Under the pieces are notes generated by a model. That model did no database searches and was not told the origin of the DNA. It worked only from the letters and a program-made list of their open reading frames with translations. This document shows positions 3,375-11,531 of a DNA stretch of 40,942 nucleotides, piece after piece (position 1 is the first letter of the stretch; each line of letters opens with the position of its first letter). The stretch comes from a virus (taxonomy: Duplodnaviria > Heunggongvirae > Uroviricota > Caudoviricetes), in the IMG/VR virus record IMGVR_UViG_2531839450_000010, positions 1 through 40,942 of that record; one strand, written 5' to 3'. A program made the translations under genes and the position numbers.

Positions 3375-3863
3375 GTGGCACAACGCGGTGTAAACAAAGT
3401 CATCCTGATTGGTACCCTGGGGCAAGACCCGGAGATCAGGTATATACCAAATGGCGGAGCGGTCGGAAGACTCAGCATCGCAACGAATGAATCATGGCGC
3501 GACAAGCAAACGGGCCAACAGAAAGAGCAAACAGAATGGCATAAAGTCGTTTTGTTCGGAAAACTTGCTGAAATTGCGAGTGAGTATTTACGAAAAGGTT
3601 CTCAGGTCTACATCGAAGGGAAACTTAAAACCCGTAAGTGGACAGATGACGCCGGTGTAGAACGTTACACGACGGAAATTATCGTCAGCCAGGGCGGCAC
3701 CATGCAAATGATCGGCGCTCGCCGCGACGATTCACAATTCTCAAATGGCTGGGGGCAGTCAAACCAACCTCAAAACCACCAGCAATACAGCGGTGGCAGT
3801 AAACCTCAGAGCAACGCCAATAGCGAACCTCCAATGGACTTTGAAGACGATATTCCATTTTGA
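3375..3863 (+). CDS. ssb: Single-stranded DNA-binding protein
   Basis: 162 aa with clear similarity to E. coli SSB across the OB fold ([19 protein letters not shown]...[30 protein letters not shown]) and the acidic tail [14 protein letters not shown] start. Confidence 0.9.
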
Positions 3864-3922
3864 GAGGGCTGAAAGTTGCTCGATTACTTAAAAATAACTT
3901 TACCTAATTGGTGTAAAAAAAT

Positions 3923-3940
3923 GGGCGCAACAAAGCGCCC
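3923..3940 (-). terminator. Terminator-like hairpin downstream of the porin gene
   Basis: GGGCGC-AACAAA-GCGCCC stem-loop followed on the minus strand by a T-run. A second strong hairpin (GAAGAGGCAAT/ATTGCCTCTTC) lies at about 3996..4021. Confidence 0.4.
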
Positions 3941-4096
3941 CAACAATAGAGTTTCAAATTAATAAAAAGGTAATAAATAACATGAAGTTAAATTGAGAAG
4001 AGGCAATTTTATTGCCTCTTCAAAGGTGGCATGAGGGTGCCACCTATATGCGGGCAGTGACATCACTCCCTTCCCGCATATTCTTACCTACCAAAA

Positions 4097-5209
4097 TTAG
4101 AATTGGTAGGTCATACCAACAGCAACGATGTTGTCGGTTGCAACCTCAGATCTTTTGGTAAATTCACTTTCATCAATCAGGTTGATCTTGTAGTCAACGA
4201 AAGCGGACATATTTTTGTTGAAGTAATAAGTCGCACCCAAGTCGATGTATTCAACCAGATCCTGGCTGCCGAACGCACCAATATTTTCACCGCGAGAGTG
4301 CAGATAAGCGATGGACGGACGCAGGCCGAAATCAAACTGGTATTGAGCAACAGCTTCAAAGTTTTTCGCCTTGTTCGCGATAAAGTCATCACCGAAGACA
4401 GTCATATTCTGAGTTTCAGAATAAGTTGCAGCCAGGTAAATGTTATTTGCGTCATATTTCAGGCCAGTAGCCCATACTTCAGCAGTTTTACCAGAAGCAT
4501 TCAGAGGATCCTTTTTAGCATAGGATACCTGCCCATCAGTACGATCAGATTTTGCATAGGTTGCACCAACGCCAAATCCTTCATAATCGTAAGTAGCAGA
4601 CAGACCAAAGCCATCACCATTAGATTCAACTACGTCACGGCCTTTCCAGTTGTTCACTTTTGCAGCACTATCATTTTTACCTTGATACTGCAAAGCAAAG
4701 TTCAGACCATCAACCAGGCCGAAGAAATCATTGTTACGGTAGGTGGCTACGCCAGTAGCACGCTGGGTCATAAATACATCGGTCTGAGTCCAGGTATCTC
4801 CACCAAACTCAGGCAGCACGTCAGTCCAAGCGCCAATATCATAAGCTACACCATAGTTGCGACCATAGTCGATTGAACCATAATCAGCAAAACGGAGGCC
4901 AGCAAATGCAAGACGAGTTTTATCTTTATCAGAGCCCTCAGATTCAGTACGGTTACCTTTAAATTCGTACTCCCACTGACCAAAACCGGTTAACTGGTCA
5001 TTAATCTGAGTTTCACCTTTGAATCCCAGACGAGCATAAGTCTTATCTCCGTCATCACTAGCTGAAGAAGAGAAGTAATGTTCTGCGTTAACTTTGCCGT
5101 ACAGATCCAGTTTATTACCGTCTTTGTTGTAGATTTCAGCTGCTTGCGCAGACATTGCCATCAGGACAGATGCTGCAACCGCAGAGAGTGCCACTGTGTA
5201 TTTTTTCAT
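4097..5209 (-). CDS. Outer-membrane porin, OmpC/OmpF family, closest to phage Lc / NmpC type
   Basis: 370 aa with signal peptide [24 protein letters not shown]-terminal [16 protein letters not shown] and C-terminal aromatic motif ending ...GMTYQF, closely resembling the NmpC/Lc porin sequence as I recall it. Confidence 0.9.
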
Positions 5210-5948
5210 TTTTTTGCCCTTTAGATTGAACTTTTCAGTAGAAAAGAAGTCACTGCGGACAAATGTTTATCTTTTTTGGATTCGTGTTTCAAGTTTTGCA
5301 AATAAAAATCAAGGTATTTTTGTGATCAAAATCACAAATAATAGCCTTGAAAACCCAATGGACTATTAGAAAAAACTCAATTCACAGAATAAAAATTGAC
5401 AAAATAGATCAAAAAACAATCAAAAATAAGCACAAAAGACAAACAATTAAATTATCACAAAAATAATAACCGTCAAAAATAGATAGCCTGTTAATTAACA
5501 GGGCTTTAATGGATGTAGACTTGAAATCTACTTAAAAATTAGAATCAAATTAATTACTGCCGATTGGGTATTAAATTGAATCTATATTGTGAGAGTTAAA
5601 GACGATGTGTTTTAGTTATAAATGTTATTCCCTAAAATGGAGCGGTCTCATCGAATCCTGATTAATAACGAGCTAAGCTAATTCATTTTAGTATGTGTAT
5701 ATCTTTACCCTCTGAATATGCAATAAAGAAGAGATATTAAACAATATGTAGCTTCAGGATTGACTCTGGAAGAATTAAAAGATCGACTAAAGTGTTCAAT
5801 ATGTGGTGAGCGAAACGCAAAAATTAATTTTTTTGATCTAACATATTAGGTAACGGCTTGCTTCCATAACCTAAAGCAAGCCACTACGCGTTTACTTTAA
5901 GTACACAATTAACATATCAGAACAGATTATTTTTGCACAATCAGGGAG
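5210..5948. promoter_or_regulatory. Long AT-rich non-coding region upstream of the porin gene (probable promoter/regulatory region)
   Basis: About 740 bp with no ORF of 60 aa or more. Contains a perfect 16-bp palindrome CCTGTTAATTAACAGG (5487..5502) and a GTAGA/TCTAC inverted repeat (5515..5531). Confidence 0.5.
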
Positions 5949-6260
5949 TTAATATACGATCTGGTCTACATGATCACCAAAATCATCATCGTCGTCGTCA
6001 TCATCGCCACCATCTACTGCTGGCCAATCAACAAACCAGCCAGCGTAAAGATGCAGCGTTCGGAGAACATCACTTGCGGGAGCATCAAGGGTGTTAACGA
6101 ATCCCATATAGCTATTGGGATTTGCCCCAGCTATGGCTTCAGCGATCATGTCCTCGGTAATGTCACCGGAGATAATGCTTAAACGCCCGGAAACTTCTTC
6201 ATTATCATCAAATTCGATAATGGCATCTCCGCCTAATGGCGCTGCGATTTTAATCTGCAT
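5949..6260 (-). CDS. Small highly acidic protein with a poly-Asp tract, last gene of the dar-like operon
   Basis: 103 aa; ATG overlaps the end of the upstream 995-aa gene (translational coupling). Sequence ends ...VDGGDDDDDDDDFGDHVDQIVY. Confidence 0.6.
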   Translation of the reverse strand: MQIKIAAPLGGDAIIEFDDNEEVSGRLSIISGDITEDMIAEAIAGANPNSYMGFVNTLDAPASDVLRTLHLYAGWFVDWPAVDGGDDDDDDDDFGDHVDQIVY

Positions 6261-9237
6261 TATTTAGCTCCTTTGCCACACCTAATAACAGTTCCAGCAA
6301 TCCGTCACCATTCATCAGTGATGCGGCAGCGGCCTCTTTGTCATGATACAACTGAAGAGCCATAGAGAATACTTCCGTTGCTGACGTTTTGGAAATAGTC
6401 GGTGATTTCTGCCGAATTTTCCCGGTGTTACTTACTGAGGCTGGCGGGTATACCTTCGCCATATAAATATTACTCAATCGAGATCTGAAGCACCATTCAG
6501 GCTTGCCACGCCCACCGATATTAACGAAAGATGGCTTATCCCCTTCAACATTGGCCTTCAGGAATGACCGGGCTTTCTCTAACAAACCAGGGTTACTGTA
6601 CTCAAGATGATGACCCAGCTCGTGCCACAGTGCACTTGCATTTTCATCGTTCAAATTGACAGCAACAACACCATTAATATTTGCATATGCCCTTCCCTGG
6701 TGGTGAACCACCTTTGATAAGGTCGAAATTTTACCGCCGGTCAGGCGATAAATATCAGCAAGTTCCTTGCGCAGGTCTATCCCACCATTCTGTCCAGCGC
6801 GGGCTTCTTCCACTTCTTCCGTGATAAAAGAGTCGGCCCACTCAAGAGCTTTTTCTTCAGATACGGATGAGTTGGCGATCGCACTGTTCATGGCAGATAA
6901 CACTTTCTCGTGGACCGAACCCATACTTTGCTGATTCATTTGCCAGCGTGTCTGCGGGTTATATGAGAATCGCTTAAGTAGTTGGTCAAGATGCTCAAGT
7001 TCTTCTTCGCTGACATACTTTTTAGCCTCACCAATAATGCCGGGGAGAATATTGCCGTTAGGATTAAACGCTCGCGAAAGGAAGAGTTTCAGCGCCCCCA
7101 TGCCCTCCGATGCTTCAATATCACCAATAACACGGTTAACAATGGCCGCACTCTTCGGATTAGCATCCGCCAACGCTCTGGCTACGATTTGCAGGGACGA
7201 TACGACCTCACGCTGCATATCAGTCCTGATCTCATCAATAAACTCTGGCGTTATGCCGTGCTCTTTAAGGATATCCCTGCCTTCCGCCGTTACCCCATCG
7301 ATATCACCGACATGTTTATTAACCTGACTTTGCAATGCCTTAAATGCCCTCAGAATTCCACGGGCATCATCAGCTTTACTAACGGCCTTCCTGAATGCTG
7401 GCAAGAAGTCAGAGTTAACCTCATTTTGTTGATCGGCCCACTGAATGGAGGCTTCTTTCATCTCGTCCAGAGTCAAATCACCCAACGCGGTATGGTCTGT
7501 GAATATGAGCGACAACCTCTGAACCATTTCTGCCAATGGTGATGCCGAATGCGCCGCGCTAAGGAATGCTTTCACCCTGGTTGGGCGAATGGAAAACCAG
7601 TCAATAGCTGGTGGCATATCTCCGTTTTTTATCGCCTGCGCTATCTCGTCAAAGCCATCGCGCCCAAGGGAGGATGCGTGATTTAACAAGCCGCGAAGTA
7701 ACGAATTGCTGATACCGAATAATCGGCACCATTTTTTCACGTCGGCAACAGGCATTCGAACAAAATGCGCAAGCACTTGTACAAGCTGTTCATCCTGGGG
7801 ATCTGTGCGGGAAAGCAGCCTGATCAGATGAATAATGTCTTTGATGCCGGATGTCCGATGTAATAGCAAACTGGTATACGGAGCAACACCGTTGTAACTA
7901 CCGCCGGAAACGGACTCGAAAAGACCGCCGGATATCCCTTGCATGCCTTCGTTTTCCAGTTCCTGAGACACCTGGCGAAGGATATCCTGTAACGACACAT
8001 CGCCGCCGCCAAACATATCCCCCAGCGCCTGGCCCTGGTGCTGTAACTCATCATTGATACGTTGAGCCATCAACTTAAAGGCGGTGGCCATACGCTTCGC
8101 GCTACGGTTATTCGCGACGATGAACAACGCGAGTGCTTTCACTTCCGGGGCCATTTCGCTGAACATATCCCCCTGAGCAATAACATCGGTAATATGCTGG
8201 CCTGACTCCTTCGATTGCCTTACCAGGTCTACCGCATCTTTCAATGCCGCCAGCGCCTTTTTATCGAGGCTATCCGCTGTCTCAATGCCATCAACAATAG
8301 TTGTCACAGCCTGCTTGTGCGCTTCTCCTGATAAAGCCTGCATCTGGACAAAATCATTGGCTGCCGCATTAAGCGCCGTCAGAACATTACGCATATCCGG
8401 ATCAGGTTCTTCTGCAACCATCCTTACCAGGCGCGCATCCTTATATGCCTTGGCAAAGATCGCGTTTTGTATACGGTCAACAAGTTGCCGCGTTGGTCGC
8501 CCATCTTCCGTTACAAGGCCAGCCGCCTGTGTGGCACCAACTTGCGTCATAAATCCGCGAATAAACGCGTCATTACTGCGGCTAAGCAGATCTCCGCTTT
8601 CTGACGGGTTAAAAAGCGCCATCATCGCCGGTGTTATGCTGTCGGCATCAACAAAAGCCTTTTCACTGGCTGCCATTTCCTGAAGATCAGAAATATTTGA
8701 GTCCTTGGCAAACTGAACGCGGTCAACCTTGGTTAACCGGCGGCGCACCAGTACCGGAGCCGTCATTGATTCAACCTTTTCAGGTCGTATGCCGAATTCG
8801 GTCGCATGATCAATCAGGTACTCACGATACCGATCCGCATTGCCGTCCTGATAGGCTTTGATGATCCCCATGGTCCGTCCATTACCTGACTCAACGGCAT
8901 TGTCCTCACCAATTATCGGCGCACCATGGCTGGATAAACCGGAATCAGTAAGCTGAGCAGGCCGCAAATCTTTGGATATCTGGTTAACCTGAAGAAGGCT
9001 GGATGCGCGGGTCCGGTCGCGCGGCTGAAGTTCCTGGGGATAGTCAGGATTAATTTTCCCATCCAGAGTATTGGATACCAAAAGAGCTGAGGCATCGACG
9101 ATATCAAACGCTGTTTTTACCTCGTCTCCCTTCGCTGTCACCACATACGAAACCCGCCCATAATCGGGCAGGTTCTTTAGCAGCTCGATCAGCGTTTCTA
9201 TGCTGGTGGCCATTACCACCTGATCGCTTAAGCTCAT
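6250..9237 (-). CDS. ddrB: Large dar-operon protein (P1 DdrB-like)
   Basis: 995-aa ORF directly downstream of the DarA-like and DdrA-like genes in one operon. Name assigned from recalled P1 gene order; no motif verified. Confidence 0.45.
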   Translation of the reverse strand: MSLSDQVVMATSIETLIELLKNLPDYGRVSYVVTAKGDEVKTAFDIVDASALLVSNTLDGKINPDYPQELQPRDRTRASSLLQVNQISKDLRPAQLTDSGLSSHGAPIIGEDNAVESGNGRTMGIIKAYQDGNADRYREYLIDHATEFGIRPEKVESMTAPVLVRRRLTKVDRVQFAKDSNISDLQEMAASEKAFVDADSITPAMMALFNPSESGDLLSRSNDAFIRGFMTQVGATQAAGLVTEDGRPTRQLVDRIQNAIFAKAYKDARLVRMVAEEPDPDMRNVLTALNAAANDFVQMQALSGEAHKQAVTTIVDGIETADSLDKKALAALKDAVDLVRQSKESGQHITDVIAQGDMFSEMAPEVKALALFIVANNRSAKRMATAFKLMAQRINDELQHQGQALGDMFGGGDVSLQDILRQVSQELENEGMQGISGGLFESVSGGSYNGVAPYTSLLLHRTSGIKDIIHLIRLLSRTDPQDEQLVQVLAHFVRMPVADVKKWCRLFGISNSLLRGLLNHASSLGRDGFDEIAQAIKNGDMPPAIDWFSIRPTRVKAFLSAAHSASPLAEMVQRLSLIFTDHTALGDLTLDEMKEASIQWADQQNEVNSDFLPAFRKAVSKADDARGILRAFKALQSQVNKHVGDIDGVTAEGRDILKEHGITPEFIDEIRTDMQREVVSSLQIVARALADANPKSAAIVNRVIGDIEASEGMGALKLFLSRAFNPNGNILPGIIGEAKKYVSEEELEHLDQLLKRFSYNPQTRWQMNQQSMGSVHEKVLSAMNSAIANSSVSEEKALEWADSFITEEVEEARAGQNGGIDLRKELADIYRLTGGKISTLSKVVHHQGRAYANINGVVAVNLNDENASALWHELGHHLEYSNPGLLEKARSFLKANVEGDKPSFVNIGGRGKPEWCFRSRLSNIYMAKVYPPASVSNTGKIRQKSPTISKTSATEVFSMALQLYHDKEAAAASLMNGDGLLELLLGVAKELNNAD

Positions 9238-9249
9238 CCCTGTTACGCC

Positions 9250-9615
9250 TTATGCTGCCTCTTTAATGTTGGCGGCTATCCATGCCGCCGTGTGCTGTTT
9301 AACCTGGTCCAGGTCGATGTATGTGCCAACATATTGACTCAAATCCTGCAAGGTACCGATAAATGCATCGGTGCTCTGATCGACGAATTTATCAGCCAGG
9401 AAATCAGCAACCAGTTTTGGCACACCATCATGTACCGAAGGTTGTTTTTCCTCGCCACTACTGCCGCCGGACACACCGTACCCCATCTGTTGCATGATCT
9501 GGTCAATTTCATCGCTGATATCCAGCAACTCCATGCCACTCGCGGTAGCCGCTTTGGACATCAGAGCATCCAACTTATCGCTGAGATCCATTAACTCAAT
9601 AGCTGATAGTGTCAT
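9250..9615 (-). CDS. ddrA: Small dar-operon protein (P1 DdrA-like)
   Basis: 121 aa, overlaps the DarA-like stop by 4 nt. Assigned by position only. Confidence 0.4.
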   Translation of the reverse strand: MTLSAIELMDLSDKLDALMSKAATASGMELLDISDEIDQIMQQMGYGVSGGSSGEEKQPSVHDGVPKLVADFLADKFVDQSTDAFIGTLQDLSQYVGTYIDLDQVKQHTAAWIAANIKEAA

Positions 9616-11531
9616 GCCGCTACCCCCGCTTTCTGGATTGCTACCAGCAGATCAGCCAGGTGGCGAGCAGCGCCATTAACCAGCTCTTCGTTTTCCTCAA
9701 AACGCCCGGCAGCCTGAAGGGCTGCAATCGCTTCCCGGACATTACCCCGGGCGTTACGGATCTCCGCCATGTCAGTGCTTTGCATATCCATCACGTTATT
9801 GAGATATTCAATGGCTTTATTAGCCTCTGCATCTGCTTCGCTAACCGTTTCATCAGGCTGTGCCGGGGCAGGTTCTGGCTGAGTAATCTCACCGACTTCG
9901 GCCTGCAATGCATTGATCATGCTCTGCACCATTTTCTCGGTGCCAGCGCCCCCCGGATACGCAATATTGGGGAAAGTTTTTTGAAACTGAGTTTTCAGCA
10001 TTACGCGGAACTCGTCTGGTGAGCTGGTGGCCAGCTCCAGAGCTTTTTGTGCATATTTGCCAAACGGACCATTAGTAAGTGTCTTCGCCAAGAAGTCGAA
10101 AGAATCCTCGCGAGGCAATAACTTCAGGTCGTACTCACTCATTTGCTGATCAGAAAGCGGGGTATCGTAAGTAGCAATGCCGTAGCGTGCATATTCATAA
10201 TACGGGTCACCTTCATCAGGGCGCGGCAGAATTGCTTTGTTACCTTCAGGTATTGCGCCAGGGGCCGCCGGACGCATTTGCAGGGCATATCGATATGCAC
10301 CTACAGAGATTTCTGGTTCAGGCGAAGAGCTACCGGTATCCTCCGCTGGTTCAGGTTCGACGTTTTCCGGTTTATGTTCTTCTGGTTGGACCAGGTATTC
10401 CGATACATTACCCGCTTTATAGGCTTTAAACAGCTTGCCGATCGCATCTGCCATGTCCACACCCTGTATGGATTTAGCCTTGATCATGTACACGCTGCCA
10501 TCCGAATCGGTTAACTGGATATACCCTTCACCGTCCTCAATGAATTGCTTCATTGATGCACCATTACTGAGCGTCACTTCCCCGTTCATATGCATACGAT
10601 TTTTGATACTTGCAAGGCGATCCGTCATCGCGCGAGAGTGTCCACCAGTCATCCCCGCAGGAGCAATGGTTTCGCGCCCACCAGTTCGATTGAGCTGATC
10701 AATCTCCGTCTGCAAACGCTCATTCTCTTCATAAAGAGAATCCGCTTCCGATGCAACAGCGTTAATTTTCTGCTCCAGATCTACCTTCTGCCCTTCTACC
10801 GCTGCCACCTGATCCGCGAGGTCGCTCATGGCATCCTCTTTCTGGTCACTGTCAGCCTGTAGTTGGGTTATTTCATCAACCAGGGCTTTTTTCTTCTTCT
10901 GCGCACGCTGGAATTTTGCCGAGTTTTTCTCTGCAAGGTTGGCAAGTTTCATGGTGACCTGCGCCAGCGTCATATCACGTCCACTCATCGGAGCAACGGT
11001 ATGAGTAACGTCTTTTTTATTCAGTAAGAACTGGAAAGCAATCAGCGTATCGCTATTGGTGATCCGGTTTTCCGCTGTCGGGCTATGAAACAGAATGCTG
11101 ATAGTCTGACCATCACTGAGCGGAATAATGGCTGGCAGGACCGGCAGCCCGTTAACGTTACGTGCCCGGCCAATTTCAGCCCCGCCGATCGCGCGTGCAC
11201 CGTTCTGGGCCACATCCCCCGTTTTATCACTCCCCGCAGAGATTCCGGTACCATTCAGCTTCTGGTTCAATGCCCGGACAAATGCCTGCATGGTCCGGTG
11301 TAGCTGCAAACGAGTAGAACTAATCGCCTCCAGTAAATCCGTAGCACACCAGTGGATCGGCGTGTCATAGAAGAACGTAGCCTCGATTTCCTCCAGGGTG
11401 TTGGATTCCGTCATCAGATAGCGGTCCTCACCGGCCATTAATGCGCGATATTCATCATCAGTCACTGGCGGGGGAAGCACGTCAAGCCCAGGTTTGATCG
11501 TCACCCCTTTATTGATATTGAACTGTTCCAT
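9612..11531 (-). CDS. darA: Antirestriction virion protein (P1 DarA-like)
   Basis: 639 aa with a central coiled-coil region; shares a short motif (KNSAKFQ) with the preceding 203-aa protein, consistent with the P1 Hdf (homolog of DarA fragment) relationship. Confidence 0.55.
   Translation of the reverse strand: MEQFNINKGVTIKPGLDVLPPPVTDDEYRALMAGEDRYLMTESNTLEEIEATFFYDTPIHWCATDLLEAISSTRLQLHRTMQAFVRALNQKLNGTGISAGSDKTGDVAQNGARAIGGAEIGRARNVNGLPVLPAIIPLSDGQTISILFHSPTAENRITNSDTLIAFQFLLNKKDVTHTVAPMSGRDMTLAQVTMKLANLAEKNSAKFQRAQKKKKALVDEITQLQADSDQKEDAMSDLADQVAAVEGQKVDLEQKINAVASEADSLYEENERLQTEIDQLNRTGGRETIAPAGMTGGHSRAMTDRLASIKNRMHMNGEVTLSNGASMKQFIEDGEGYIQLTDSDGSVYMIKAKSIQGVDMADAIGKLFKAYKAGNVSEYLVQPEEHKPENVEPEPAEDTGSSSPEPEISVGAYRYALQMRPAAPGAIPEGNKAILPRPDEGDPYYEYARYGIATYDTPLSDQQMSEYDLKLLPREDSFDFLAKTLTNGPFGKYAQKALELATSSPDEFRVMLKTQFQKTFPNIAYPGGAGTEKMVQSMINALQAEVGEITQPEPAPAQPDETVSEADAEANKAIEYLNNVMDMQSTDMAEIRNARGNVREAIAALQAAGRFEENEELVNGAARHLADLLVAIQKAGVAA

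Follow-up and report, generated by a model that had tools for sequence, protein, structure and literature searches.

The 103-codon open reading frame at positions 5949..6260 (minus strand) of the window, by which we mean the whole 40,942-nucleotide stretch of viral DNA analysed here, encodes a small acidic protein whose gene is strictly paired with the zincin-like metallopeptidase half of DdrB. As judged by sequence identity, the window is a P1-like phage and the open reading frame is the hxr gene of P1. The gene itself has long been known. The present analysis adds that its annotation is to be rejected, that the gene is deeply and strictly paired with the peptidase domain, and that the family of Hxr proteins is wider.

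The hxr gene and its acidic product

The window shares 99.8% identity with the P1-like phages JL22 and phi456, and 96% with P1 and P7. Its Hxr is 97-98% identical to that of P1 and matches the family profile phrog_2292 over its full length (residues 1-103, E 3.9e-60). The gene starts with ATG and its 103 codons give a protein beginning MQIKIAAPLGG...GGDDDDDDDDFGDHVDQIVY. The gene and the parts of its product are as follows.

5949..6260, minus strand: hxr coding sequence (103 aa plus stop), the same gene as P1 hxr, P7 odaA and ORFVIII of the original darA-operon record, where a terminator is annotated after it; PHROG 2292
6012..6260, minus strand: predicted folded core of Hxr, residues 1-83, from AlphaFold2 pLDDT and the family alignment
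5952..6011, minus strand: predicted disordered acidic tail, residues 84-103, with pLDDT below 50, ten Asp/Glu, no Lys/Arg and the hydrophobic C-terminus IVY
5982..6005, minus strand: Asp8 homopolymer, residues 86-93, written in GAT and GAC codons and length-polymorphic between phages

With 19 Asp and 5 Glu (24 acidic residues) against 1 Lys and 2 Arg (3 basic), a pI of 4.05 and a mass of 11.1 kDa, Hxr is indeed the strongly acidic protein that a sequence-only reading of this DNA had described. The same reading had the protein end in a run of eight aspartates. The run is present, but the protein is not literally poly-Asp-terminated, because the ten residues FGDHVDQIVY follow it to the C-terminus. 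The only tryptic sites are K4, R26 and R67, which yield peptides of 4, 22, 41 and 36 residues.

An AlphaFold2 model built on a 22-sequence alignment (mean pLDDT 76) predicts a beta-beta-beta-alpha-alpha-beta core of four strands and two helices over about residues 1-82, with pLDDT values of 82-90 in the core block, except for 68 at residues 21-30, and a disordered tail. On this model, Hxr consists of an alpha/beta core of ~82 aa and a disordered, purely acidic tail of ~20 residues with a conserved hydrophobic C-terminus. The core carries 14 acidic and 3 basic residues, and S50, G53, V65-L66-R67, W75 and W79-P80 are invariant in the family alignment, across which the acidic tail with its [IV]-[NYF] end is also kept.

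The core is without detectable relatives outside its own family. Foldseek searches of PDB and BFVD with the Hxr model returned nothing at E<=0.001, and sequence searches of PDB, with a single sequence and with a profile, found no relative, the best match being RapA at a chance-level E of 0.74. None of the 22 members matched a Pfam family, helix-turn-helix families included, even at E<=10, and Hxr matched nothing in NCBIfam. A comparison with a bona fide HTH_3/MqsA protein in hhalign gave a probability of 0.15%. The ArdA domain of Pfam was absent from Hxr, no structural match to the three-domain fold of ArdA was seen, and neither sequence nor fold similarity to Ocr was found. As matches in Pfam, NCBIfam, hhalign, PDB and Foldseek are absent, the Xre label carried by this gene and membership in the Ocr or ArdA families are both unsupported. 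The earlier suggestion of an Ocr- or ArdA-type DNA mimic does not stand as a statement of family membership. In the structure prediction, 10 of the 24 acidic residues fall in a disordered tail of variable length and not on a rigid surface.

Variation at the locus was examined among close and more diverged relatives. The first 84 codons of 82 near-identical loci hold 14 synonymous and 6 non-synonymous variant codons (ratio ~0.12), and moderately diverged pairs give dN/dS values of 0.07-0.24 (Nei-Gojobori). Among 83 loci the acidic run varies from 6 to 10 Asp/Glu with 0 frameshifts, and the C-terminal ...IVY is kept. hxr is a real gene under purifying selection, and the open reading frame is more than a product of chance, because the family is conserved, dN/dS is low and the acidic run is never frameshifted.

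Position at the end of the darA operon

The genes upstream of hxr on the same strand are lydA-lydB-hdf-darA-ddrA-ddrB, and the DarA of the window matches Pfam DarA_N and DarA_C. The features that bear on the expression of hxr are listed below.

6250..9237, minus strand: ddrB (995 aa), with an N-terminal ddrB-ParB domain (Pfam PF18763) and a C-terminal zincin-like metallopeptidase domain (PMC5512222)
6610..6624, minus strand: HELGH zinc-binding motif, DdrB residues 872-876, 124 residues before the DdrB C-terminus
6250..6260, minus strand: 11-nt overlap of the hxr start and the ddrB stop (ATGCAGATTAA), with the hxr ATG at 6258-6260 and the ddrB stop at 6250-6252
6268..6273, minus strand: hxr Shine-Dalgarno sequence AAGGAG, 7 nt before the ATG, formed by conserved DdrB Lys-Glu codons
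12900..12938, minus strand: late promoter LPdar, upstream of lydA, identical in sequence to that of P1 and presumed to be the sole hxr promoter
5850..5887, minus strand: 15-bp stem-loop after hxr (z = -5.1), inside the P1-annotated darA-operon terminator (window ~5845..5919)

The overlap, the AAGGAG site and the run of genes from lydA to ddrB upstream bear out what had been noticed from the letters alone, namely that hxr stands in translational coupling at the end of a dar-like operon. An overlap of 11, 14 or 17 nt is present in all P1-like loci, and in 13 loci, with Hxr identities as low as ~30%, it persists together with the AAGGAG site. Since AAGGAG is encoded by the Lys-Glu pair of DdrB, this DNA is doubly constrained, as part of the DdrB C-terminal helix and as the ribosome-binding site of hxr. 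The pair is kept in nearly all DdrB homologues; L007, a metagenomic P1-like contig, and L182 have Gln-Glu, with CAGGAG at the DNA level.

The stem-loop after hxr and the darA-operon terminator are conserved with P1, and a consensus scan of the minus strand from 5200 to 9700 found no sigma-70-like or internal promoter-like site. Because LPdar and the stem-loop are conserved and no internal promoter-like site was seen, homology and consensus scans indicate that hxr is the last cistron of the late darA-operon transcript.

Several further observations concern the surroundings of the operon. A porin gene (4097..5209, minus strand, 370 aa; Pfam Porin_1, E 4e-148) lies between ssb and hxr. The same porin is ompD or nmpC in JL22 and P7, and P1 has an IS1 with isaA and isaB at that site; in this P1-like lineage the porin gene is cargo, or a moron. 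The match to P1 picks up again at 5729, within the 3' end of P1 isaB, so that the window (~5729..5848) seems to retain only a remnant of isaB beside the darA-operon terminator. Antisense to ddrB, at 8285..8683 (plus strand), a putative 132-aa open reading frame has the length of P1 iddB and the corresponding position inside ddrB. In other P1-like elements, a gene for a HicB-like antitoxin is inserted on the opposite strand between ddrA and ddrB (L005, 3985..4425), and a RelE/MqsA pair stands just after hxr (L097). Toxin-antitoxin genes appear to insert preferentially at the borders of the dar operon.

Pairing of hxr with the peptidase half of DdrB

An exhaustive phmmer and profile search for the Hxr family returned only proteins of ~96-105 aa from P1-like elements of Enterobacterales, at 30-47% identity, together with one tandem duplicate. 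The acidic tail contains 0 basic residues in all of these relatives and ends nearly always in [IV]-[VI]-N or -Y. The FG-GAP repeat proteins P0020 and P0025 were set aside as spurious matches to 'SGDITEDMIAEAIAGANP'. In 7/7 diverged loci with flanks, hxr closes the lydB-hdf-darA-ddrA-ddrB block (with lydA as well where the flank reaches), and the genes beyond hxr vary among these loci (porin, ssb, CHAP, Arc-like, RelE/MqsA).

The pairing was also seen from the side of DdrB. Loci were fetched with the DdrB C-terminus alone, independently of hxr, and all 96 of these ddrB loci, 80/80 close ones and 16/16 diverged ones, carry an intact hxr whose start overlaps ddrB. The P1-like phage D6 (L260, NC_050154) supplies the reverse case. 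Its operon keeps lydA-lydB-hdf-darA-ddrA, and its DdrB (3492..4856) consists of the N-terminal 454 aa only, which retain the ParB-like half and lack the peptidase half. No hxr was found in D6 by tblastn with Hxr at E<=10. This joint loss of the peptidase half and of hxr ties Hxr to the C-terminal half of DdrB and not to its ParB-like N-terminus. Neither orf23 nor orf24, which come downstream in D6, qualifies as an Hxr substitute: the two are a DUF4145 protein and a protein with a signal peptide.

The tandem duplicate is found in the metagenomic contig L007 (8001..8555), where two hxr copies are fused in a 184-aa open reading frame, the first with a short acidic tail and the second with a full one. 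The DdrB of this contig is at least 98% identical to that of the window up to residue ~850, and 56% identical at residues 901-950.

The pairing extends to remote lineages. The DdrB-type peptidase domain was aligned from several lineages, with LWHExGH..E and TE..SM.L as its invariant features, and the alignment was then used to fetch 33 loci. An open reading frame of at least 76 aa starts between 38 nt inside and 2 nt past the stop of the peptidase gene in 31 of them. The 19 distinct remote open reading frames, counted with the P1-like and VAP7 loci left out, all have a pI of 4.1-5.3. In the first round, the Hxr profile scored L277 at 30-32 bits and L273 at ~20 bits; six further distinct remote open reading frames reached E<=1e-3 in the 24-sequence set, and L272 stood at 3-4e-3. 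Profile iteration brought L285 and L291 into the Hxr family, with L300 marginal, and 11/19 were significant Hxr homologs after iteration. A tblastn cross-check linked L277 to the Hxr of a Leclercia P1-like plasmid, and an open reading frame of the L287 type ends a complete dar-like operon on an 84-kb Serratia plasmid. These remote members, ~20-25% identical to Hxr and at the same position in distant P1-like plasmids, retain the ...LL.TLE..G..V.WPE motif, the acidic tail and the hydrophobic-[NYF] end. By these alignments, the pair of DdrB-type peptidase and Hxr is much older than the P1 group.

Positional analogues occur still further away. In the Vibrio phages VAP7/VP-1, Bakedbeans and K476/D533/1.255.O, the same peptidase clade sits at the C-terminus of a large protein, and an open reading frame of 87-90 aa follows directly, with a 2-nt gap, an 11-nt overlap (Bakedbeans) or a 4-nt overlap. 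These small proteins are homologous to one another (hhalign 88%, E 3e-6). Their similarity to Hxr is not significant (hhalign probabilities of 1-3%), and they are not acidic. Locus searches with single Vibrio peptidase domains returned their own contig only, or nothing. One of the small proteins, gp181 of VAP7 (L261, 3349..3621; 90 aa), which adjoins the DdrB-type peptidase gene, is one of a family of ~88-aa proteins in Vibrio phages whose members always come after this peptidase domain; its 'tetraspanin-15' label is almost certainly an annotation artefact. gp181 stands at rank 38 among the best 50 BFVD Foldseek matches of the Hxr model, with TM scores of 0.36/0.40 that are below significance; its appearance there, by a route independent of DdrB, is suggestive at the level of predicted structure.

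In Xanthomonas phage Rb1 (L263, 1643..3556), the DdrB-type peptidase domain is internal, with ~150 more residues behind it in the same protein; a giant SNF2-like polyvalent protein comes next. These additional C-terminal residues (…TVPVGESEIARIFLWCWRQHGIEPNY…) might correspond to the small partner proteins in fused form; the HMM score was not significant.

Possible roles of Hxr and comparison with known systems

We tentatively favour a reading in which Hxr is a dedicated chaperone or regulator (latency factor) of the C-terminal zincin domain of DdrB and stays in the cell. Translation of hxr would presumably be coupled to ribosomes that are just finishing the peptidase domain, and Hxr would be the partner, co-translated in stoichiometric amounts, that masks or inactivates this end of DdrB in the producing cell. 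The masked state would last until DdrB enters the procapsid and is cut to its 76-kDa packaged form, and Hxr would be left behind in the cytoplasm after DdrB loading. The acidic tail could act as a pseudo-substrate or as an 'aspartate-switch'-like ligand of the zinc site, or else as an electrostatic shield. Processing of DdrB to ~76 kDa has been reported, and self-processing through its C-terminal metallopeptidase has been predicted (PMC5512222). The contact between Hxr and DdrB, the regulatory or chaperone role and the target of the tail are what we infer.

As expected for a gene of the chaperone class, hxr is adjacent to and co-inherited with its proposed client (96/96 loci, co-loss in D6, deep pairing). 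Against this reading, gene linkage alone could be behind much of the synteny of hxr and ddrB, and CRISPRi knock-down of hxr gave no plating phenotype in a non-restricting K-12 host (PMC10695390). The sequence-only reading had offered, as its alternative to DNA mimicry, a chaperone for the packaged Dar proteins. The context, namely the coupling to DdrB, the co-loss in D6 and the apparent absence of Hxr from virions, fits that alternative much better than a DNA mimic, although as an interpretation of context.

Several observations bear on a putative physical interface. An AlphaFold prediction of the C-terminal 295 aa of DdrB reached a pLDDT of 42 and was unusable. Hxr identity tracks the middle and the C-terminus of DdrB better than its N-terminus, and the middle about as well as the C-terminus, a pattern that linkage explains. 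The correlations do not tell specific co-evolution of Hxr with the DdrB C-terminus apart from linkage, and L096 and L191 show free recombination at the junction. In these two Klebsiella/Enterobacter-type elements the DdrB C-termini are 97% identical, whereas the Hxr proteins are only 69% identical; dS is 1.1-1.4 in hxr against 0.25 in the 3' end of ddrB, and the jump falls exactly at the junction. The sequences thus place a recombination breakpoint at the hxr/ddrB overlap. A 75-residue segment after HExxH is basic in 21 P1-like loci (net charge +5 to +11), and tail and segment charge correlate overall (rho -0.56), which reflects clade structure. The same segment is neutral in remote members though their partner proteins are still acidic, so the docking of the acidic tail on this segment was dropped as a general rule.

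A broader version of this reading, which we regard as doubtful, would make Hxr-type proteins the obligate small subunit of a two-gene module formed by a DdrB-type zincin domain and a coupled partner of ~90-100 aa. Such a module would control the self-processing and delivery of packaged polyvalent anti-defence proteins. Its conservation would reach from P1-like plasmid-prophages to Vibrio Ackermannviridae, the partners having diverged too far to be recognised by sequence; in P1 and its relatives the tail would serve as an 'aspartate switch' acting in trans on the zinc site. If so, Hxr would be a seventh, overlooked component of the Dar system.

It is unlikely, in our estimate, that Hxr is instead a DNA-mimic anti-restriction or anti-defence protein in the style of Ocr, ArdA or Arn, one that occupies the DNA-binding site of a host nuclease and is either packaged and injected or active late against late-acting defences. 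Its pI of 4.05, its 24 acidic against 3 basic residues and the acidic tail found throughout the family would suit such a role, as would its location in the only operon of P1 dedicated to anti-restriction. However, Hxr is related neither in sequence nor in fold to Ocr, ArdA or any PDB or BFVD entry, and the tail that holds 10 of its 24 acidic residues is disordered and variable in length, not a rigid B-DNA-like array. Annotation and consensus scans point to expression from the late operon only, with no internal promoter-like site. The virion proteome table of P1 lists Ulx, DarB, DdrB, DdrA, DarA and Hdf, and Hxr is not in the list (PMC9024508). Expressed late and missing from this list, Hxr would miss the time at which incoming DNA needs protection, unless it is packaged. 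By our own reasoning the missing entry is weak evidence, because the protein offers three tryptic sites only, and the DNA-mimic reading gains some room from this. The Dar system is given as six proteins, and Hxr is not among them (PMC12810830; PMC9024508). There is also no sign of diversifying selection (dN/dS <= 0.24), and DNA mimicry leaves the strict pairing with the DdrB peptidase half and the co-loss in D6 unexplained. We found no functional statement on hxr, restriction assays included, in the searchable literature.

Rather improbable is a third reading, in which Hxr is itself a packaged internal head protein, serving either as minor Dar cargo or as an acidic filler or adaptor between DdrB and the DarA/Hdf layer, and was missed by trypsin proteomics. 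Hdf, DarA, DdrA and DdrB, all products of this operon, are head-internal (PMC9024508), and Hxr is poorly detectable with trypsin. In addition, its strand-2 motif I-I-E/[IV]-V-E resembles the (L/I)-x-E sites of T4-type prohead proteases, a resemblance that is suggestive at best, and Pro, the T4 gp21-like protease of P1, cleaves the major capsid protein after E120. However, DdrA and Ulx, which are similarly small, were found in P1 virions by LC-MS/MS (PMC9024508) whereas Hxr went undetected, the IxE motif lies within a predicted beta-strand of the folded core, and Hxr is without a known capsid-targeting signal.

The current database annotation as an Xre-like transcriptional repressor goes back to a single P1 GenBank note, which reads "possible repressor; homolog of Xre", cites 28% identity over ~58 residues and was propagated to other records, and it is effectively refuted: no HTH_3 or other profile matches, the predicted fold is beta-rich with two helices, the pI is near 4 with three Lys/Arg, and hxr closes a late structural operon.

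The Dar system of P1 is the textbook example of a phage that packages anti-restriction proteins in its head. In the Dar literature examined, hxr is ignored or labelled a "putative repressor"; it is unmentioned in the paper on polyvalent proteins (PMC5512222) and in that on the DarA/Hdf structure (PMC12810830). The strict pairing of hxr with the DdrB peptidase leads to a concrete hypothesis for the control of DdrB processing and loading, and it points to a recurrent arrangement of a peptidase domain plus a small coupled open reading frame in polyvalent phage proteins. Should the DNA-mimic reading prove true, Hxr would represent a new fold among DNA-mimic anti-defence proteins.

Among known systems, Xre/HTH_3 repressors share only their size with Hxr, which is acidic and beta-rich and has no helix-turn-helix. 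Ocr (T7 gp0.3) and ArdA come closer, being small, with a pI of ~4, encoded by mobile elements and found in an anti-restriction setting, and electrostatic DNA mimicry of their kind is conceivable for the Hxr tail. However, they are rigid dimers that are made first on entry, whereas Hxr has a disordered, variable tail and a late-operon position. In its style, the tail of P1-clade Hxr proteins (DDDDDDDDF...IVY) is the same as those of SSB, T7 gp2.5 and T4 gp32, in which a disordered Asp/Glu run with a hydrophobic or aromatic end docks on partners or on the protein's own DNA-binding cleft. The Hxr core, however, is not an OB fold, carries no ssDNA-binding signature and showed no similarity to these proteins in any search.

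Within P1, Ulx, presumably encoded next to darB, is small like Hxr and may be to DarB what Hxr is to DdrB. Ulx is reported to aid the localisation or incorporation of DarB (PMC9024508). Unlike Hxr, it was detected in virions, and the two proteins showed no sequence relation in any search. Zincin pro-peptides and inhibitors, such as the 'aspartate switch' of astacin or AprI/Inh of the serralysins, keep a peptidase latent by placing an acidic residue or a chain terminus in the zinc site. The acidic tail of Hxr, with its conserved C-terminus encoded beside an HExxH domain, recalls this arrangement, a purely inferential parallel that involves no homology. Finally, class I chaperones of type III secretion systems (SycE, CesT, SicP) are acidic alpha/beta proteins of ~100-130 aa whose genes lie beside those of their cognate effectors, and they are needed for effector delivery yet remain in the producing cell. 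In these features, they parallel the relationship that we propose between Hxr and DdrB.
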